A stretch of 35,913 bases of DNA, from the IMG/VR virus record IMGVR_UViG_3300021432_000004, positions 1 through 35,913 of that record; one strand, written 5' to 3'. Positions 13,313 to 35,279 of this stretch are shown piece after piece. Below the pieces are notes generated by a model. That model was not told the origin of the DNA. It did no database searches and saw nothing but the letters and a program-made list of their open reading frames with translations. Within the stretch, counting starts at the first letter, position 1. Each line of letters starts with the position of its first letter. The stretch comes from a virus. The translations under genes were made by a program, and so were the position numbers.

Positions 13313-14239
13313 ATGACCGCACCAACCAATACCTTTCTGACCACGGCCGCCATCGGCAATCGTGAAGACTTGACGGATATCATCTATCGTATCTCGCCGA
13401 CCACGACGCCGCTGCTGAACCTGGCAGCCAAGGCCAAGGCAAGCAACACTCTGCACGAGTGGCAAACTCAAGACCTCGCGGCTGCATCCACAAGCAATGC
13501 ACAGGCCGAGGGCGACAATGCTTCGGCAAAGACCGTGACACCGACGGTTCGCTTGAACAATCGCACTCAGATTTCGACAAAAACAGTGATCGTCTCCGGT
13601 ACGCAAGAGGCGATGAACCCAGCCGGACGCAAGGATGAACTGGCTTACCAGTTGTCGTTGGCATCCCTAGAACTGAAACGCGACATGGAATCGTCATTGA
13701 CTCAGTTGGACGTGACCGCGACATCGCCTCGCCAAGCGCGCGGCCTGCGTGGCTGGCTCGTTGACAACATTGACAACGGCACTGGCTATGTTGCACCGTC
13801 CTATACCGGCAATACCGGTACGACAGATGGCACGCAGCGCGCATTCACCGAATCTTCACTGAAGAATACGCTGCAGAAGATTTACGTCGCCGGTGGCGAT
13901 CCTGACGTCGTGATGACAGGCCCAGCGCAGAAGCAGACGTTCTCTACCTTCACCGGTAATGCGACACGCTTCGACAAGTCGGAAGACGAAAAACTGTATG
14001 CCGGCATTTCGGTGTATGTCTCCGACTTCGGCACATTGAATATCATGCCGAACCGCTTCCAGCGCACCCGCGATGTATTCGTGATCGAAAGCGACAAGGT
14101 TGCGGTGGCTTATCTGCGTCCATTCCAAACCATTAAATTGGCGACCACTGGCGATGCGCTGCAACGTGAATTGGTTTGCGAATTCACTTTGGAATATCGT
14201 GCACCGAAGTCTGGTGGCGCGATTTACGATGTTTTGTAG
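13313..14239 (+). CDS. Major capsid protein
   Basis: 308 aa after the scaffold. The N-terminal motif GNREDLTDIIYRISPTTTPLL is typical of a podovirus/HK97-fold capsid family. Confidence 0.85.
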   Translation: MTAPTNTFLTTAAIGNREDLTDIIYRISPTTTPLLNLAAKAKASNTLHEWQTQDLAAASTSNAQAEGDNASAKTVTPTVRLNNRTQISTKTVIVSGTQEAMNPAGRKDELAYQLSLASLELKRDMESSLTQLDVTATSPRQARGLRGWLVDNIDNGTGYVAPSYTGNTGTTDGTQRAFTESSLKNTLQKIYVAGGDPDVVMTGPAQKQTFSTFTGNATRFDKSEDEKLYAGISVYVSDFGTLNIMPNRFQRTRDVFVIESDKVAVAYLRPFQTIKLATTGDALQRELVCEFTLEYRAPKSGGAIYDVL

Positions 14240-26307: not shown

Positions 26308-26561
26308 TGCCCGTCGAAGACAATACGCTGCTCAAGTCGATTGCCGAACATCCTCGCACGGCAATAGCGGTGCCGCTGACCACGGCGGCGGTGGGGCAAC
26401 TGACCTTGATCGCGCAATTGCAAAGCTGGCTGACGCTGGCCTCGATGTGCCTGGGCCTGATGGTGGGCTTGATCTTGATGCGCACGCGTTGGCTGGAAAT
26501 GAAAAAGGCCGAGCTGGAACTCAGGAACCACACGGAGGGGAAGCATGAAAATAATCGCTGA
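26307..26561 (+). CDS. Holin-like two-TM protein, 84 aa
   Basis: Two hydrophobic helices plus a charged C-terminal tail. TAATG coupling; upstream of the endolysin. Confidence 0.7.
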   Translation: MPVEDNTLLKSIAEHPRTAIAVPLTTAAVGQLTLIAQLQSWLTLASMCLGLMVGLILMRTRWLEMKKAELELRNHTEGKHENNR

Positions 26562-26793
26562 GTGGCGTTGTGCCTACCGTTATCTGACCGTCAAGCTAGC
26601 GCTGCTGGTAGCGATGGTGGCCGCCTGTGAACCTATTTCCCCCGTCTTGCAACAGTATTTGCCACATGGATGGTATGGATGGGCTGCGATTGTGATAGCC
26701 CTCGCGCGCCTGGTGCCTCAGCCCATCGCCCCCGACAAAGGGGCTGCATTGAAACGCCGTTCTGCCGATAGGGGAAATGATCATGACGAATGA
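26545..26793 (+). CDS. Second small two-TM protein, 82 aa (holin/antiholin candidate)
   Basis: GGAGGGG RBS, two hydrophobic segments and a charged tail. Confidence 0.65.
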   Translation: MKIIAEWRCAYRYLTVKLALLVAMVAACEPISPVLQQYLPHGWYGWAAIVIALARLVPQPIAPDKGAALKRRSADRGNDHDE

Positions 26794-27304
26794 TGAACTG
26801 GTTGAAATCATGCCGTACGCGTTTGAGCGAGCGGCAAAGTTTGTCGATCCACTCAATGCGACGATGGCAGAATTCGACATCACGACGCCCTTGCGCCAGG
26901 CGGCGTTCGTCGCCCAGATCGGCCATGAATCGGGACAATTCCGCTATGTGAAGGAAACCGCGAGCGGCGACGCCTACGAAGGGCGCGCGGACTTGGGGAA
27001 TAACGTCCCAGGCGACGGCGTCCTGTTTAAGGGGCGAGGCCTGATCCAAATTACCGGACGCACCAATTACGCCGATCTGTGCCTGGCATTGAATATCGAC
27101 TGCTTGGACCATCCTGAGATTCTGGAGCAGCCTGAAAATGCCTGCCGTTCTGCAGGCTGGTATTGGAAGACGCGTGGCCTCAATCAGTTGGCCGACGTGC
27201 AGGATTTTGAGCGCATCACACGTCGTATCAATGGCGGCTTGAACGGACAAGAGGATAGGCTTGCGCTGTATGCCAAGGCAAAGCAGGTACTAGGATGCCT
27301 CTAA
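26777..27304 (+). CDS. Endolysin, glycoside hydrolase family 19 type
   Basis: Motifs FVAQIGHESGQFRY, GDGVLFKGRGLIQITGRTNY and RRINGGLNGQEDR match GH19 phage lysozymes. Confidence 0.9.
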   Translation: MIMTNDELVEIMPYAFERAAKFVDPLNATMAEFDITTPLRQAAFVAQIGHESGQFRYVKETASGDAYEGRADLGNNVPGDGVLFKGRGLIQITGRTNYADLCLALNIDCLDHPEILEQPENACRSAGWYWKTRGLNQLADVQDFERITRRINGGLNGQEDRLALYAKAKQVLGCL

Positions 27305-27844: not shown

Positions 27845-29146
27845 ATGAGTACTGCACCGACTAGCATCTATCTGACCCAATTCATGGGACAGGTCTACGA
27901 TCAAGCCGACCAAGGCGCTTGCGTGCCTAATGCCATGATGGCATCGATTAATTTGATCGAGCGCGAACAAGGCAAACAGGCATTTAACGGCTCCAGGGAT
28001 TTCGTGTATTGGAATGGGCAAGAGGACATTTCTCACCATTCCATACCCTATGGGACAGTTACCTCGGAAGTCCTGGCTGATTTAGAGACGAAAGGCGTCG
28101 CGCCGGAATCCATGTGGTCCTATAACGACACCAATGCACTGACAAAGGCGCCGGATGCCGTCTATCAGGAAGCGCTGAAGCATACGATAACCAGCTACGA
28201 CGCCGACTTGTTGGCACCGGCTCAGCAAAATTATGTAATGCTGAATTGGATTGTCGGGGAATTGAAGCAGGGCAAGCCGGTGCAGATGGATTTCAATGCC
28301 AAGACTTGGCTAACCTATGAGCATGGAGCATTGAATACATTGCACGTTCCAGTTGATCCTAATGGTGCTGGATTACTTGGAGGCCATTGCACGACAATTG
28401 TAGGCTATGATGCACATTTGGATGCTTCTCCACAAAACCCACTTGGTTCTCTCATCATTCAAAATTCATGGGGGACAGGTTATGGCGACAACGGATTAGA
28501 AGTGATTCCTTTGGCTGAATTCCCTGGAGATTTTAGTCCTATCAATGGACAGCCTAATGTGTGGGAATTGTATGCAATCAGTGGCTTTGAAGGTGTTGAC
28601 CAGAAATACACAGCTTCTAAAGCTCAAGTGTCTGACGCCTATACGACGATCTTGCAACGCGCGCCAGAAGCGGCCGGCATGAACTTTTTTTCCAGTTTGT
28701 TGGACAATGCAACGGTCAATCTTGATCAGATTTACGACAGCATGTTTAACTCTTCCGAAGGCCAAGCTATCTACGGCGGCATGAGCCATGCGCAGATCGT
28801 CACGCAGATGTATCGCTCAGTGCTCAATCGTGATCCTGATGCTGCTGGGTTTGCGTTCTTCTTGAACAGGTTAGATACTGGCGCATGCACGCCTGGGCAA
28901 ATGTATGAGCAGACCATTGCCGCAGTTAAGGGCATCACATCCGGCAATGATTTGATGGGACATGACTATCTGCTGAATAAAGAGGATATGGGGGAGTATT
29001 ACAGTATCGCGATGCAAATCGACGGCACTCACAGCGCGTTGGCACATAACATTATTTCGCAAGTTACGTCTGACGCCAATCAGTGCCAAATCGTCAAAGT
29101 GGGCATTGCGCCACAGTTGGGCGCGGATTGGAACGTGCATTCTTAA
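27845..29146 (+). CDS. Papain-like (C1) cysteine peptidase fused to two DUF4214 repeats
   Basis: Catalytic-type motifs DQGACVPNA (Cys), GGHCTTIVGYD (His) and IQNSWGTGYGDNG (Asn). C-terminal LQRAPEAAGMNFF and LNRDPDAAGFAFFLNRL are DUF4214-like. Confidence 0.85.
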   Translation: MSTAPTSIYLTQFMGQVYDQADQGACVPNAMMASINLIEREQGKQAFNGSRDFVYWNGQEDISHHSIPYGTVTSEVLADLETKGVAPESMWSYNDTNALTKAPDAVYQEALKHTITSYDADLLAPAQQNYVMLNWIVGELKQGKPVQMDFNAKTWLTYEHGALNTLHVPVDPNGAGLLGGHCTTIVGYDAHLDASPQNPLGSLIIQNSWGTGYGDNGLEVIPLAEFPGDFSPINGQPNVWELYAISGFEGVDQKYTASKAQVSDAYTTILQRAPEAAGMNFFSSLLDNATVNLDQIYDSMFNSSEGQAIYGGMSHAQIVTQMYRSVLNRDPDAAGFAFFLNRLDTGACTPGQMYEQTIAAVKGITSGNDLMGHDYLLNKEDMGEYYSIAMQIDGTHSALAHNIISQVTSDANQCQIVKVGIAPQLGADWNVHS

Positions 29147-30352: not shown

Positions 30353-30707
30353 GGATGCTCTCACGTATTCCACTGGCCACAGGAATCAACTCACAAACGC
30401 CAGTCAAATAAATTTCAGGATTGATTACGTCGAGTTTTGATTTTCCAGGTTGCAGCCCTTTTTGGGCTACACCCGAAAGCGCGACTCCATCAGCGGCTTT
30501 CCAACTCCACAAACGCCGGGAATTTTTCAGAATGACGTTTTCGCCATCTACGCTGACCACTTCGCCAGCATGCACGCCGGCCGCATAGCATCGCGCGATG
30601 ACGTACTTTCCTACCATTGGGTTCTGCAAAGCTGTTTGCGTTTGTGATGAGCTAAACAAAGAGGCTAATTCTTTGGCTTGGCCGATTGTCAAATCATTGA
30701 TATTCAT
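30339..30707 (-). CDS. Hypothetical protein, 122 aa (conserved-looking phage early protein)
   Basis: AAGGAGAAAG RBS region upstream of ATG 30707. Globular composition. Confidence 0.75.
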   Translation of the reverse strand: MNINDLTIGQAKELASLFSSSQTQTALQNPMVGKYVIARCYAAGVHAGEVVSVDGENVILKNSRRLWSWKAADGVALSGVAQKGLQPGKSKLDVINPEIYLTGVCELIPVASGIRESIHDYR

Positions 30708-30735
30708 ACTTTCTCCTTAGTGGGTACTGCTGTTA

Positions 30736-31020
30736 TTATGGGTAAGCGATTAATTTCAATTCTTCTTTTTGCTGGACAAGCACGCCGCATTGGCTTGCTA
30801 TGCTTAAAATTGAATTCAAAGTTTCTCGTATGCTTTCTATTCCTTCTGAACAATCTACTGGAGTGTTTCCCGTAGCCGCTTTCAGAACTGCATTCAAGTC
30901 ACCTTGTATTGATGAGCAAAGTTTTTGCAATTCAATTTTTAGCCGTTCATGCTCCGCTCGCACGGTTGAATATTTCCCGCGTGCGAGCAAAACTTCTGTA
31001 TCGAATTGACTAAGGTCCAT
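30736..31020 (-). CDS. Hypothetical helical protein, 94 aa
   Basis: The start abuts the stop of the SSB-like gene (TGATATGG context). Confidence 0.7.
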   Translation of the reverse strand: MDLSQFDTEVLLARGKYSTVRAEHERLKIELQKLCSSIQGDLNAVLKAATGNTPVDCSEGIESIRETLNSILSIASQCGVLVQQKEELKLIAYP

Positions 31021-31021
31021 A

Positions 31022-31660
31022 TCAGAAAGGGATATCTTCGTCTAAATCAATTTCAGACAGTCCTGATTGATGCTGAATCGATTGTTGTGATGATTTCTTT
31101 TTCAAAGGCCGGTCGCTTAATTGTGCAAGCAAAACAGGTAGCATTTCTGGCTTGGTTTTCTTATCAAGAATTTCTGATGCAACCATTTCAGTAGCAGAGT
31201 CAAAAACCTGGAACAATTCAAGACGCCAAGCTGTTTCACCTGTCTTTACTGCGTCCTTCATTTTTTCGTATTCAGTAGAGCGAAACAACACACCAATTGG
31301 TTTATTCAACAAATCCGCGAATACTTCTGCATCTACTATTTCGTTTGCGCGTGTCTCATTATTCCAACGATCTACCTTGCCACTTGATGGCTTGATATTT
31401 CTAAGGCGCAAGCACGTCATGATAGCCATCAAAGCTTTGAAGCCAACAAGTTGAGAGCCCTCTTTGTCTGTCGTCCATATATCAAAGCGTGTAGTCCGAT
31501 TATCGTTATTCTTAAAAGTAAAGCCGATACCGTGCGTACCTTTCTTGCTGCTGACTAATTTTTCAGCGCGAGTAAAAATGCCTTTATATTTCCCAGTATC
31601 AGTTAAATAATTGCTGATTTTTTCTGCTTCACGCGCTGATTGTGTATTGAGTTCGTACAT
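31022..31660 (-). CDS. Phage single-strand DNA-binding-like protein (DUF669-type) with SSB C-terminal tip
   Basis: Ends LSEIDLDEDIPF, the canonical acidic SSB tail. Sits directly downstream of the Sak4-like ATPase. AAGGA RBS. Confidence 0.75.
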   Translation of the reverse strand: MYELNTQSAREAEKISNYLTDTGKYKGIFTRAEKLVSSKKGTHGIGFTFKNNDNRTTRFDIWTTDKEGSQLVGFKALMAIMTCLRLRNIKPSSGKVDRWNNETRANEIVDAEVFADLLNKPIGVLFRSTEYEKMKDAVKTGETAWRLELFQVFDSATEMVASEILDKKTKPEMLPVLLAQLSDRPLKKKSSQQSIQHQSGLSEIDLDEDIPF

Positions 31661-31662
31661 GG

Positions 31663-32310
31663 TTAATCCTTGGTTAAATAATAGGCTTGGATTGCATCGT
31701 CAACGAGTTTTAAATCGTTTTCAATATGCTCGGTTTCAAAAAGTCCCATTGGGGACTTACATGTATTGCTACCATTGTTTTGCGTTTCAAAAATATAGTT
31801 TTGATTGACGACCTTTGTTTGCAAAACGATTGTCAACATGGATTCTACTGGGCAGGCTTGGTCTATCATCTTGCCGATTGTTTTTGCTTTCGTCTGACCG
31901 CTTTCGCTTACCTCTGTATGACCCAAAAGATAGACACGGACATCTTCAGCCATGCCAGATGTAGCCATCAATAAATCCCAAGCAGCGCGTCCTATCTCGG
32001 TAAATTTTTGATAGCCTTTTTCATCTGAGCGGCGCATGAAAGAATTTGTCATCGTCAAATTCCAGTCATCTATCACGATTATTTTCCGCTTTGTTTTTTG
32101 CATTAAATTTATTATTTTTGCAGAGTCATCGCAGACAAAAATATTCCCTTCCTTACAGGTTTGTGCATTGAAATATTTCCAATGCGAAGACCTAAAAGGC
32201 AAAGGCTTTTTTATTGGTTGAATCAGGAGGGTATTTTGTGGATCGAGATTGCGAAGACTGGTAGATTTTCCTGTGCCAGATTCGCCTATGATGAGCGCTG
32301 CTATAGACAT
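31663..32310 (-). CDS. Sak4-like (AAA_24-type) RecA-fold ATPase
   Basis: Walker A GESGTGKST, Walker B KIIVIDDW. About 215 aa, paired with the SSB-like gene. Confidence 0.8.
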   Translation of the reverse strand: MSIAALIIGESGTGKSTSLRNLDPQNTLLIQPIKKPLPFRSSHWKYFNAQTCKEGNIFVCDDSAKIINLMQKTKRKIIVIDDWNLTMTNSFMRRSDEKGYQKFTEIGRAAWDLLMATSGMAEDVRVYLLGHTEVSESGQTKAKTIGKMIDQACPVESMLTIVLQTKVVNQNYIFETQNNGSNTCKSPMGLFETEHIENDLKLVDDAIQAYYLTKD

Positions 32311-32362
32311 GATTTTCCTTGGTTTTTACTTGGTTTTAAATGGGTTGTTTTTGCAATATAGT

Positions 32363-32557
32363 TTAGAAAGGACAGTTATGCAATTTAATATATTTGTCTT
32401 GTTCTTTCTTTTCTTTTTCTGTCAGTTCAATAAATTCAATCGAACTTGGAGGAAGCTTAGAAAGCCTGATTTGTTCTCTAGCGGTTTCTCCTTGCCTACG
32501 CTGTAATTCAGTGATTGGTTTTCTTTGAAAGTTTTTCATGGCTTCAATATTTCTCAA
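32363..32557 (-). CDS. Hypothetical basic protein, 64 aa
   Basis: Overlaps the upstream gene by 14 nt; co-oriented. Confidence 0.55.
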   Translation of the reverse strand: MRNIEAMKNFQRKPITELQRRQGETAREQIRLSKLPPSSIEFIELTEKEKKEQDKYIKLHNCPF

Positions 32558-32753
32558 TAATAAGCGCCAAAATAATCAACGCTGATATCACACAAAGTTT
32601 TATGACAGTTCGCGTAAAACTTTCTTCCGATGGCAAGCCCAACATCGCGTCAGATAGCTGATGCGGCCGGTTCAGCTTCTCGCGTACCTTAATAGCGCGC
32701 TTGATTGTGCGGCGTGCACTGAGGTCGCTTAGGTAAGCGCGAAGGTGTTTCAT
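32544..32753 (-). CDS. Small tail-anchored membrane protein, 69 aa
   Basis: C-terminal hydrophobic helix VIKLCVISALIILALII. ATGA-type overlap with the Cys-repeat gene. Confidence 0.65.
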   Translation of the reverse strand: MKHLRAYLSDLSARRTIKRAIKVREKLNRPHQLSDAMLGLPSEESFTRTVIKLCVISALIILALIIEKY

Positions 32754-33430
32754 TTTGAAGCTTCTTCTTCAGCCAAGCGGCGCATATCAGCCATAGCAGT
32801 TTCATTGCTTTCATAAAACCGCGTAGGACTAACTAGAAGATCAGGCGAGCTTGCATGGTATATCAGCAGTGCAGCTAATGGCGTATCGTGAAAACGCTCC
32901 AATTCCTTACCAGCTTCGCCAGCCAAATGTACGACCCAGCCAGCGCGGCAATGCGTTGTCTCGCAACTGTGCCAGGTAGACATATTCAGAGCATCAGGCT
33001 TGCTGACAGCAGCTAAAACGGTTTGGTGGATATTGTCGATTATTGGAATTGCTGGCGCGCCCAGATTTCCAGAAGTCGCATCTGGTTCAGCGCACAAGCC
33101 TTTTTTATTCCATAGATTGGCGATATGGTAGCAGTCGGAGCAGCGGGAGCAGCTGGAGCAGCGGGAGCAGCGGGAGCAGCTGGAGCAGTCGGAGCAGCGG
33201 GAGCAGCAGAAGCAGCGGGAGCAGCTGGAGCAGCTGGAGCAGTTGGAGCAGTCGGAGCAGCGGGAGCAGCCGAAGCAGCGGGAGCAGCCGAAGCAGTCGG
33301 AGCAGTCGGAGCAGTTTATGCAATTCTGGCACTCATTCAGCGATTCCAGTGCCTCCCGTGCAGCTTCTTCGCTGCCGAAATATTCAACGCTGCATTTATT
33401 GCCGTTTTTGTCTTCGATCCAGGTTGTCAT
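32750..33430 (-). CDS. Cys-X-X repeat protein, 226 aa, with non-repetitive C-terminal domain
   Basis: ATG 33430 with AAGGA RBS. 23 consecutive CXX triplets, then a domain containing WHSCETTHCRAGW. Confidence 0.75.
   Translation of the reverse strand: MTTWIEDKNGNKCSVEYFGSEEAAREALESLNECQNCINCSDCSDCFGCSRCFGCSRCSDCSNCSSCSSCSRCFCCSRCSDCSSCSRCSRCSSCSRCSDCYHIANLWNKKGLCAEPDATSGNLGAPAIPIIDNIHQTVLAAVSKPDALNMSTWHSCETTHCRAGWVVHLAGEAGKELERFHDTPLAALLIYHASSPDLLVSPTRFYESNETAMADMRRLAEEEASK
33125..33331. repeat. 9-nt-periodic tandem array (GGAGCAGCN on + strand) encoding the CXX triplets
   Basis: Read directly. It produces spurious long ORFs in several frames on both strands. Confidence 0.9.
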
Positions 33431-33456
33431 GATTTTCCTTTGGGGCTGTGAAAAAA

Positions 33457-33777
33457 CTAGTGGTAAAGCAAAGTACTGATCACCATACAGGTCACCAGCA
33501 CCATGCAGAAAACATAGGCCGACACCTTCATTAGCTTGCGGTTTGTCTCGCACTGGGCGCAGATGCGGATCAATTCTTTCTTTTGCACTGCCCTGGTAGC
33601 GCCGTGCGATGAGCCAAACGCATTCCATTGAGCAGCGCACCAGGCAGCCTTCCACGCATCAGGCTCGCCGGCCCCATTCGCATAGGCGCGCACGTGATCC
33701 AACTCAGAGTCGCTAGCAAAGCCATTGGCAAAGCACTCAGCGACTTCCAGCGCGCGCCGGGTGCTGGTGTCTTGCAT
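33457..33777 (-). CDS. Tail-anchored protein, 106 aa, with Ala/Trp-rich helical N-domain
   Basis: N-terminal RRALEVAECFANGFASDSEL ... AWKAAWCAAQW. C-terminal hydrophobic helix YVFCMVLVTCMVISTLL. Confidence 0.6.
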   Translation of the reverse strand: MQDTSTRRALEVAECFANGFASDSELDHVRAYANGAGEPDAWKAAWCAAQWNAFGSSHGATRAVQKKELIRICAQCETNRKLMKVSAYVFCMVLVTCMVISTLLYH

Positions 33778-34115: not shown

Positions 34116-34354
34116 TGTGTTGGTGCGTTTATTGTTGGTGGCCGGATTTAAACCGGCTGCTAGGTCATTTTCTGCGCTTCTTGGTGCCGGTCACCACTCC
34201 GGTCTGTTTAATCTCTGTCCTTATCCGGCTACCATAATTGGCTTGAGGCATCGGAGGTTTGATTCGGTGATATCGCAGCAGTCGCAACCCTAGACGCTTT
34301 AATCACGCTGATGGTGATATTCGACTCGTTGCTTGTTTCTGCGGCGATGTAAGA

Positions 34355-34383
34355 ACTATAGATCAGCTAAAATATAAATGCAA
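34355..34383 (-). promoter_or_regulatory. Leftward sigma70-like promoter TTGCAT-17 nt-TATAGT
   Basis: On the minus strand: -35 = rc of 34378-34383, -10 = rc of 34355-34360. Both hexamers overlap AAGAACTAT repeats (34351-34359, 34382-34390). Confidence 0.55.
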
Positions 34384-34418
34384 GAACTATTGCAAGATAT
34401 TTTTCATGCAGATAAGTA

Positions 34419-34447
34419 TTGATTTATGTAATCCTGTTTGCTATATT
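34419..34447 (+). promoter_or_regulatory. Rightward sigma70-like promoter TTGATT-17 nt-TATATT
   Basis: -35 at 34419-34424, -10 at 34442-34447, followed by AAAGGAG and ATG 34467. Confidence 0.65.
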
Positions 34448-34466
34448 GGTCGAAGAAAAGGAGCCA

Positions 34467-34649
34467 ATGATGGATAAACTTGAATATGTAAGAGAAAACT
34501 TAAAGAACACCGCCAAAGATGCAGAGGTGTCCTTTAAAACGAAAATTTCAACACGAACGCTAAGTAACATCCGTAAGCCAGACAGCAAACCGCATACCAG
34601 CACTATTGAGGCGTTGCACGCTTATTTTAAGAGAAGGGAGAGCAAATGA
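34467..34649 (+). CDS. Cro-like small HTH regulator, 60 aa
   Basis: ATG 34467 after AAAGGAG. The segment KISTRTLSNIRKP looks like an HTH recognition region. First gene after the promoter. Confidence 0.65.
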   Translation: MMDKLEYVRENLKNTAKDAEVSFKTKISTRTLSNIRKPDSKPHTSTIEALHAYFKRRESK

Positions 34650-34906
34650 AATACGCTCTTTACCGCCATTTTGATAAAGATGAAAAGTTACTTTATGTGG
34701 GGATGTCGGGATTTGTTTTTGACAGGAATAATCAGCATCGATATTCCTCCTGGTATGACGAAATAAAAACCATCACCATTGAAAAATTTGACTCCAAAGA
34801 AGATGCGCTAAGAGCAGAGACTGATGCTATCAGTAGAGAAAATCCTGTTTATAACATAATGGGTAAAGGAAGGAATTCCAAAATAGTTTTAAGGGGTGAA
34901 AATTGA
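34646..34906 (+). CDS. Stand-alone GIY-YIG-like nuclease-fold protein, 86 aa
   Basis: ALYRHF ... LLYVGMS ... R-x3-H ... AETDAI ... PVYN spacing fits the GIY-YIG core. ATGA overlap upstream. Confidence 0.65.
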   Translation: MKYALYRHFDKDEKLLYVGMSGFVFDRNNQHRYSSWYDEIKTITIEKFDSKEDALRAETDAISRENPVYNIMGKGRNSKIVLRGEN

Positions 34907-35046
34907 TAATCAGCCACAACCGCATCATCACGGAATACCGCAGATACCTAGCCTATCTAAGCGAAGCCGACGCTATCCGTAAAACTGCCGAGCAATTGTT
35001 CATGCTCGAATTCGAAGTTGAGAAAATTGTGAAGGAAGATAAATGA
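34903..35046 (+). CDS. Possible 47-aa protein (TTG start, not in ORF track)
   Basis: TTGA overlap with the upstream stop, AAGGGG RBS, and a stop overlapping the next ATG (ATGA). Confidence 0.4.
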   Translation: MIISHNRIITEYRRYLAYLSEADAIRKTAEQLFMLEFEVEKIVKEDK

Positions 35047-35279
35047 TTGATATAGAAAAATTGCGCAAGTCAGCCAAAAAAGCAGATGATCGCACTGATT
35101 CGTGGCCGTTTCATGAAAAGGCGATGCAGAAATTATTTACAGTCGAGGTCGTAAATAATCTGCTAGATAGGCTGGAGCGTGCTGAAGCATTCTTACGTGA
35201 ATGCGCTGATGAAAAAAATATCATTACAGAATCGAAGACACGCGCCGACGCAATTCATATTTTGGAGCAAGCTAAATGA
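35043..35279 (+). CDS. Hypothetical helical protein, 78 aa
   Basis: GAAGGAAG RBS; coupled to both neighbours. Confidence 0.7.
   Translation: MIDIEKLRKSAKKADDRTDSWPFHEKAMQKLFTVEVVNNLLDRLERAEAFLRECADEKNIITESKTRADAIHILEQAK

Follow-up and report, generated by a model that had tools for sequence, protein, structure and literature searches.

The IMG/VR virus record IMGVR_UViG_3300021432_000004 (positions 1 to 35,913; hereafter the window, i.e. the whole stretch of 35,913 nucleotides that was analysed) covers most of a phage genome and carries on its minus strand a gene whose product contains 23 uninterrupted Cys-x-x triplets. This Cys-triplet array is a genuinely unusual and widespread feature. 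The protein that bears it belongs to an uncharacterised family pattern, a repeat module followed by a conserved C-terminal domain (C domain), of which it is a new variant, and the array itself may constitute a new fold. We lean, with some reserve, toward the view that the product is an early accessory protein of the phage that binds a host factor. The gene and the parts of its product are as follows.

32750-33430, minus strand: complete coding sequence (CDS) of the Cys-triplet-array protein, 226 amino acids (aa) plus TGA, based on the list of open reading frames (ORFs), the translation and 924 homologues at E<=1e-3.
33436-33440, minus strand: Shine-Dalgarno-like AAGGA, five bases 5' of the ATG, by direct reading of the sequence.
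33332-33430, minus strand: N-terminal cap, aa 1-33, predicted beta-hairpin plus helix (AF2, alignment A1, phrog_15341).
33125-33331, minus strand: 23 Cys-x-x triplets, aa 34-102, 24 Cys (translation, Tandem Repeats Finder, family consensus C-S-[D/G/R]).
33056-33124, minus strand: linker, aa 103-125 (IANLWNKKGL...), semi-conserved and missing in some homologues, with a predicted local distance difference test score (pLDDT) of ~60.
32753-33055, minus strand: C-terminal domain, aa 126-226, predicted all-alpha (phrog_31265, pLDDT, 1529 clusters).
32936-32974, minus strand: motif W153-H-S-C-E-T-T-H-C-R-A-G-W165, putative metal site (alignments A1 and A2).

The CDS opens with ATG at 33430-33428 and closes with TGA at 32752-32750. 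This start is favoured over GTG 33655 because homologues share the identical beginning MTTW(I/L)xDxNGN; the longer ORF from GTG 33655 runs into the upstream gene. The Cys frame is supported by the conserved N- and C-terminal domains, which are read in this frame on either side of the array, and the ORFs that cover the array in other frames or on the opposite strand (e.g. 33043-33432 and 33125-33451 on the plus strand, 33105-33332 on the minus strand) are by-products of the repeat. An earlier note, made from the sequence alone, had proposed this ORF, start and frame, and the translation, the AAGGA and the shared start of the homologues bear the call out; its count of 23 uninterrupted triplets and 24 Cys in 69 aa is likewise accurate to the base. 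The 226-aa product shows neither an evident signal peptide nor a membrane segment, and a scan for promoters and terminators revealed no excess above shuffled sequence.

The array reads CQN CIN CSD CSD CFG CSR CFG CSR CSD CSN CSS CSS CSR CFC CSR CSD CSS CSR CSR CSS CSR CSD CYH, and is strictly C-x-x without CxC, the sole exception being one CC at the CFC C unit. Tandem Repeats Finder detects a 9-nucleotide (nt) period at 33130-33314 (19.8 copies, 85% matches, score 216) and, over the same interval, a higher-order period of 27 nt (6.9 copies, score 251), a periodicity far beyond chance. A protein search with the array alone returned 4 matches, its signal being mostly suppressed by low-complexity handling.

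Codons were compared in 111 arrays, of which 106 are distinct, taken from contigs of viruses and bacteria, the 98 long ones being measured at each of the nine positions of the unit. Heterozygosity inside these 98 arrays is 0, 0 and 0.03 across the Cys codon (nt 1-3), 0.06, 0.14 and 0.05 across the second codon (nt 4-6), and 0.47, 0.45 and 0.04 across the third (nt 7-9). Variation within an array is thus centred on two bases that switch Asp, Gly and Arg (also Tyr, Asn and His); these first three residues are all found in 86 of the 98 arrays, and the mean net charge per triplet is -0.07. From array to array the prevailing Ser codon changes, being TCG in 54, TCC in 31, TCT in 11 and TCA in 2, AGT, which lies two substitutions from TCN, occurring in a few; the Cys codon is TGC in 94 and TGT in 4, with codon positions 1-2 invariant, and the third-codon Asp is either GAC or GAT, depending on the locus. 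Since lineages differ in the DNA unit and agree in the peptide C-S-[D/G/R], a purely DNA-level element is ruled out and the Cys frame is confirmed: selection acts on the protein, not on the DNA. The notion that iterons, a Chi-like site or a recombination hotspot merely happens to lie inside the ORF could appeal to the roughly twenty tandem 9-nt copies and to the adjoining recombination genes. We consider it barely credible, as the codon analysis largely refutes it, both through the locus-dependent unit and through the fact that variation tracks codon positions.

Twenty-five homologues carry old, diverged arrays. In these, Ser occupies position 2 in only 24% of units and position 3 is Asp, Asn or Gly in 58%, whereas Cys keeps its period of three over as many as 30 units. 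Where a Cys has been lost, it has become Ser about two-thirds of the time (1% of units, vs 0.5% for all other residues together). Because Cys is kept while Ser erodes, the conserved property is the period-3 ladder of thiols rather than the Cys-Ser dipeptide.

Array length is far less constant. Across contigs, unit number ranges from 3 to 53; among the best 120 protein matches the median is 15, and most arrays have 7-28 units. Two pairs of viral contigs from different metagenomes, for which short-read assembly error is possible, illustrate the turnover: the flanks of L010 match those of L037 completely (373/373 nt upstream, 700/700 nt downstream), yet the two have 37 and 42 units, respectively, while L021 and L025 share the same flanks and unit number and differ in two units, at the third codon only (Asp to Tyr, Asp to Arg). 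These observations agree with a rapid change of array length and unit order through in-frame gain, loss and conversion of 9-nt units. In addition, the uniformity of synonymous sites inside each array points to recent concerted expansion. The earlier note had described the locus as slippage-prone and had suggested a survey of repeat number in related phages; both the range of 3 to 53 units and the L010/L037 pair bear it out. Array length may serve as a fast strain marker.

Such turnover invites a less functional explanation, in which the long array is mostly a by-product of slippage, the first ~5 Cys (C34-C46) and the N-terminal cap forming a single zinc knuckle and the remainder being a tolerated disordered linker. 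Array differences between identical flanks and recent expansion speak for this explanation, and it accommodates the homologues with 3-8 units, the array pLDDT of about 40 and the invariant or near-invariant Cys at the two ends of the array in alignment A1 (C34, C37, C40, C43 and C46; C94, C97 and C100). Drift, however, would erode the diverged old arrays, which keep Cys in period 3 for up to 30 units. The near-neutral mix of Asp, Gly and Arg in 86 of the 98 arrays and the typical length of the arrays in the best 120 matches also argue against it. We regard it as a serious possibility, albeit an unlikely one.

Two further sequences bear on how such arrays are called. In P0078, a 347-aa metagenomic homologue, the array flips repeatedly between the Cys frame (CSDCSR...) and a +1 'APTAPA' frame, through either paired frameshifts inside the repeat or assembly errors; it illustrates how fragile gene calling is in Cys-x-x arrays. 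The homologue of Flavobacterium phage FL-1 (L002 3539-4355; KY421186.2 about 26455-27271) has ~35 units and a different N-terminal cap (MKTQIFESY...). Its array is annotated in GenBank in the wrong frame, as an 'APIAPVAP...' hypothetical protein, and its C domain is cut off into a separate 74-aa CDS by a frameshift that is either a sequencing error or the mark of a pseudogene. Deposited phage genomes thus mis-annotate Cys-array genes, as FL-1 exemplifies.

The segments on either side of the array are predicted with confidence. AF2 models, which contain no metals, were computed for the window protein from a 109-sequence alignment and for a homologue with eight units. The N-terminal cap, whose conserved residues in alignment A1 are W4, D7, N11, S14, G19, A24, L28 and L31, reaches a pLDDT of 92-96 over residues 1-30 and 90 over residues 31-40 in both models. 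The C domain (residues 125-226) is modelled as six helices with a pLDDT mostly of 94-98, one 10-residue block being at 72. The array has no confident fold, either in the 23-unit window protein (pLDDT about 40 over residues 50-99) or in the eight-unit homologue (47-57), and isolated beta-bridges at every third residue appear over aa 32-50 in one of the two models. The lack of a confident fold for the array between confident ends fits a cofactor-dependent structure and, equally, disorder. The structure prediction recommended in the earlier note is thus confident for the cap and the C domain and not for the array. Foldseek searches with the two models found no significant fold match in the PDB (best E 3.9 to 4.5) and, in BFVD, only uncharacterised phage fragments of the same family; a sequence-profile search of the PDB gave nothing below E = 0.08.

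Within the C domain, H154, C156, H160, C161 and G164 are invariant in full-length homologues (A1). In the wider set of C domains (A2), C156, H160, C161 and G164 remain invariant and H154 is kept in >=90%. The window protein thereby displays the family motif H-x(1-2)-C-x3-H-C-R-[AG]-G-W, located just ahead of helix 162-169 in the AF2 model. Judging from this conservation and from the model, H154, C156, H160 and C161 probably form a treble-clef-like metal site.

The protein is one of a large group. The 924 homologues were recovered from a set of 5.8 billion proteins; the best 120 of them are mostly full length (166-347 aa), mostly 44-64% identical, and all unnamed or 'hypothetical'. Relatives number 537 on IMG/VR viral contigs and 96 in representative bacterial genomes and metagenome-assembled genomes, where prophage copies occur in at least eight phyla, the carriers including Alpha-, Beta- and Gammaproteobacteria, Bacteroidota, Acidobacteriota, Planctomycetota, Patescibacteria, Cyanobacteria and Nitrospira; isolates with relatives include Kaistia, Phyllobacterium, Rhizorhapis and Dyadobacter. 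The absence of a named family for the protein, already remarked upon from the sequence, holds: Pfam and NCBIfam scans yield no match at E<=1, and the two PHROGs that match, phrog_31265 (5.4e-34 over aa 127-225, the C domain) and phrog_15341 (4.2e-15 over aa 7-73, the N-terminal cap and the start of the array), are both annotated 'unknown function'.

When the C domain alone was used in a full HMMER scan of 1.84 billion cluster representatives (E<=1e-3, clusters at 50% identity), 1529 clusters contained it, at the C-terminus in 150 of the 150 listed. Cxx arrays precede it in 36 of the 148 clusters that were classified, and pentapeptide repeats in about 60; PF00805 matched 32 of 50 members of a separate subset chosen to represent the non-Cxx forms. 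Leucine-rich repeats (LRR) stand ahead of the C domain in a few proteins (P0179, P0217, P0229) and DUF4116 repeats in P0241, while P0121, P0150 and P0180 are stand-alone C domains. Among isolated phages, FL-1 encodes a Cxx homologue and 19 Ralstonia phage records encode the C domain behind pentapeptide repeats. These comparisons of protein sequence show that a very large family of phage and prophage proteins has the C domain as its constant, autonomous unit, and that the Cys-x-x array fills the slot held by pentapeptide, LRR or DUF4116 repeats in sister proteins. The 'non-repetitive domain' that had been noticed behind the array does exist, a description that has to be amended in that it is the most widely shared part, found alone or behind these other repeats.

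Two side observations concern the distribution of these elements. First, the same (C-S-x)n array is present in an unrelated family of 105-120 aa proteins (P0269, P0271, P0272; L163 2041-2358), where an N-terminal helix precedes it and a C-terminal 'G.NL.YAICNVELTKEEYEKK' segment follows; members of this family are encoded in phage-like runs of small co-directional ORFs without Pfam matches. More than one family therefore has a Cys-triplet array. Second, a single contig of Xanthomonas sp. NCPPB 1128 (NZ_LFME01000002.1) carries two C-domain genes 37 kb apart (L130 and L131), each with the same cI-like gene 2677 nt upstream, which is probably a duplicated or tandem prophage.

Our favoured explanation takes the product as a cytoplasmic accessory protein of an early operon resembling that of lambda pL, built of three modules. 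Lacking a signal peptide, the protein is presumably cytoplasmic, and its 24 evenly spaced thiolates should therefore be metal-bound. In the reducing cytoplasm, they would most likely bind Zn2+ as Zn(Cys)4, and less likely Fe-S. Metal would fold the array into an extended rod of adjustable length, the metal-free array being disordered, and this rod would act as a binding or spacer scaffold for the C domain. The latter, with its putative treble-clef-like His/Cys site, would engage a host factor in take-over or counter-defence, from a position analogous to that of lambda ral, kil or gam. The pentapeptide-repeat fold of MfpA, Qnr and McbG mimics DNA. A host-factor-binding role is favoured because sister proteins carry pentapeptide repeats, i.e. 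this DNA-mimic fold, and because the genes lie beside recombination functions. Also counted in its favour are the size and spread of the family, its modular architecture, protein-level selection, the array differences between identical flanks, the AF2 pattern, the early-operon-like context and the lack of an evident signal peptide.

Several points weigh against this explanation. Homologues with only 3-6 units exist, and the long array is therefore not essential. AF2 yields no array fold, which leaves the 'rod' a conjecture. Searches of Pfam, NCBIfam, PADLOC and the sequences and folds of the PDB detect no relative of the C domain whose function is known. Finally, position-3 residues were compared at successive lags in search of the number of triplets per coil; the weak signals at lags 1, 4 and 6 are explicable by the 27-nt duplication unit, which confounds this periodicity test.

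A bolder and rather improbable version would see in the array a new repeat fold, a cytoplasmic metal-thiolate rod with about one Zn(Cys)4 (charge -2) per four triplets, its length tuned by 9-nt slippage. Such a rod could be a polyanionic stand-in for the DNA-mimicking pentapeptide beta-helix of the sister proteins and, with the C domain, define an undescribed class of early inhibitors of a host DNA-handling or defence enzyme.

Alternatively, the array itself could be the effector, a thiol, metal or Fe-S sponge or redox buffer taking up Zn, Fe-S, Cu or electrophiles with the assistance of the C domain. Its extreme Cys density (24 in 69 aa, and up to 53 units in relatives) and the conserved thiol periodicity would suit this role, as would the CxxC and CxxCxxC spacings, which are those of zinc-knuckle and ferredoxin ligands. 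The same slot is nevertheless held by pentapeptide, LRR or DUF4116 repeats, which are incapable of thiol sponging, and short-array members would sponge poorly. The existence of other repeats in this slot and of stand-alone C domains indicates that the common function is not thiol chemistry, and we find the sponge improbable, if a little less so than the polyanionic rod.

The genomic context resembles that of an early region. On the plus strand, the window encodes terminase, portal, NinB, a primosomal/replication protein and a resolvase, with an SU10-type major capsid protein at 13313-14239. Megablast of 16 kb of the window against INPHARED (50,697 GenBank phage records) returned no match, and the phage therefore represents a novel lineage. 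The Cys gene belongs to a leftward operon, upstream of Sak4 (31663-32310) and SSB (31022-31660), that diverges from a small repressor-like gene at 34419. Its assignment to an early leftward operon in the earlier note is thus upheld, the position being lambda-pL-like in related loci as well. Two small ORFs bracket it.

32544-32753, minus strand: downstream 69-aa ORF with a C-terminal hydrophobic segment and a 4-nt ATGA overlap with the Cys-gene stop.
33457-33777, minus strand: upstream 106-aa ORF with a C-terminal hydrophobic segment, weak PHROG matches only, not among the recurrent neighbour clusters.

The overlap and the hydrophobic tails of these ORFs are as had been described. The co-translated module with tail-anchored membrane proteins that they had suggested was rejected as a feature of the family: a hydrophobic-segment ORF lies immediately downstream in only 10 of 91 Cxx loci, and no neighbour is conserved. 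The GC content is 51-57% in the 32.6-34.1 kb interval, which holds the Cys gene and two upstream ORFs, vs 35-41% on either side, in the Sak4/SSB genes (30600-32600) and the repressor-side genes (34200-35200). This sharp step suggests mosaicism and a separate acquisition of the block.

ORFs within +/-5 kb were clustered in 159 related loci, and the clusters were labelled by eye from their representatives rather than by profile searches. Helix-turn-helix (HTH)/cI-like genes recur (24 upstream, mostly on the same strand), as do two RecT types, a YqaJ-like exonuclease, an MT-A70-like methylase and HNH. Integrases are found mostly downstream on the same strand, as are RecT and the exonuclease. No single neighbour is conserved across the 159 loci in this clustering, and Pfam, NCBIfam and PADLOC scans of the neighbours of the Cys protein gave nothing.

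This neighbourhood could also be that of a prophage defence or superinfection-exclusion protein, composed of a repeat sensor and an effector domain and expressed in the lysogen instead of early in the lytic cycle. A cI-like HTH/S24 gene often lies upstream of the gene in the same orientation, an arrangement shared by lambda rexAB; prophage copies exist in many bacterial genomes, and interchangeable repeat modules are typical of sensors. Co-orientation with cI does not discriminate, since lambda pL genes are co-oriented with cI too. Against a defence role, none of the Cxx, pentapeptide, LRR, DUF4116 and stand-alone forms has a match in PADLOC-DB v2 at E<=0.1; moreover, the window and Ralstonia phage RpY1 both have the gene divergent from a repressor-like gene and within, or at the head of, the recombination-gene operon. 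We therefore consider such a defence or exclusion protein doubtful at best and retain the early, host-factor-binding role as our preferred explanation.

Elsewhere in the window, a 433-aa product (27845-29146, plus strand) at the end of the structural block matches papain-family Peptidase_C1 (3e-5, above the Pfam cut-off) and DUF4214, the latter over two stretches; it may be a peptidase that serves lysis or is associated with the virion. Immediately following the repressor-like gene, an 86-aa endonuclease-like ORF (34646-34906, plus strand) matches phrog_16880 and phrog_3312 and, weakly, a homing endonuclease.

Should the array prove to be a scaffold organised by metal, protein structure would gain a new repeat architecture and a natural case of length-tunable metal-thiolate wires; to our knowledge, its three-residue unit is the shortest for which particular side chains are required, Gly-x-y aside. 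A C domain directed at a host factor would give a function to a family of more than 1,500 clusters, found in phages of at least eight phyla, and the exchangeable modules (Cys triplets, pentapeptide, LRR, DUF4116) would represent a phage toolkit for retargeting one effector.

How the array compares with known cysteine-rich proteins had been assessed in the earlier note, which found it unlike DnaJ, ferredoxin and metallothionein. This part stands: the DnaJ (CxxCxGxG x4), ferredoxin (CxxCxxCxxxCP) and metallothionein (CxC/CC, <10 kDa) patterns do not occur in the protein, nor do Pfam and NCBIfam report a match. The DnaJ cysteine-rich domain and CXXC-type zinc fingers have the same CxxC spacing, with Gly, Asp or Asn before the next Cys, and zinc-knuckle arrays, like the array discussed here, are expected to fold around metal. 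Unlike them, arrays of the window family have 23 to over 50 contiguous units without spacer, and we know of no solved zinc protein with such a run. The best PDB profile matches are zinc fingers, at a non-significant E = 0.08-8. The antifreeze protein of Tenebrio molitor (PDB 1EZG; 12-residue TCTxSxxCxxAx coils) has Cys, Ser or Ala at every third position, as in the array, whereas it is extracellular and disulfide-bonded, with Cys every six residues; its profile match has E = 6.4. A beta-solenoid of this type is not supported by AF2 (array pLDDT 40-57 in two runs), and serves as an analogy, not as evidence. The bias for turn-forming or charged residues (Asp, Asn, Gly, Arg) at position 3 and the loss of Cys to Ser recall zinc knuckles and the Tenebrio ladder by analogy only. 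Daugavet et al. (PMC7379824; bioRxiv 10.64898/2026.06.07.730663) describe 'cysteine-rich repeats' that are beta-defensin-like, eukaryotic and unrelated. Literature searches on the array peptides and the THCRAGW motif returned nothing relevant, and those on phage pentapeptide repeats and anti-defence returned no functional data for the C-domain family.

A named precedent for long Cys-Xaa-Xaa runs, overlooked by the earlier note, does exist among peptides made on ribosomes and then modified post-translationally (RiPPs). By this precedent, the product would be a RiPP-like precursor in which Cys (and Ser) are converted into thiazol(in)es and oxazol(in)es or into lanthionines. Cys-Ser pairs resemble the bis-heterocycle sites of microcin B17. 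The precursors of heterocycloanthracins and sonorensin, which are thiazole bacteriocins, are defined by Cys-Xaa-Xaa arrays of variable length (TIGR03601; Haft 2009, PMC2674419), and a relative of the window protein (P0086) carries a precomputed match to PF27784, which has been used as the sonorensin rule (PMC13289728). The window family shares with heterocycloanthracins the long run, tripeptide indels between close relatives and a propensity to be mis-framed. Heterocycloanthracin precursors consist of a 50-100 aa leader and core with the array at the C-terminus, in genomes that encode cyclodehydratase, dehydrogenase and docking proteins (PMC2674419). The window array, unlike theirs, is internal, between the two folded domains of a 226-aa phage protein, which has no NCBIfam or TIGR03601 match at E<=1. 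No cyclodehydratase, dehydrogenase, LanM or radical-SAM maturase-like neighbour recurs in the 159 loci as judged by eye, and none of the ten larger window ORFs scanned (nine over 300 aa) has a RiPP-enzyme Pfam domain, three further large ORFs being terminase, portal and scaffolding protein. Together with hosts scattered across many phyla and diverged arrays that drop Ser and retain Cys, this makes a RiPP-like precursor very unlikely.

Like ral, cIII, kil and gam of the lambda pL operon, genes of this family have the repressor/early promoter region on one side and the recombination genes on the other, and share their strand with RecT, exonuclease and integrase; no similarity of sequence or fold accompanies this position. 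By homology, the closest relatives are phage 'putative pentapeptide repeat proteins', with which the C domain alone is held in common. In those of the Ralstonia phages RpY1 (RpY1_018), RSK1 and RsoP1IDN, the C domain is 51-57% identical and includes the PxIxNIH and WHxxCxxxHCRAGW motifs. Their repeat is the A(D/N)LxX pentapeptide beta-helix (PF00805), whereas that of the window protein is Cys-x-x, with no Pfam match to PF00805. Both consist of an N-terminal repeat module followed by the C domain, and both are encoded in the early region, beside a cI-like regulator.

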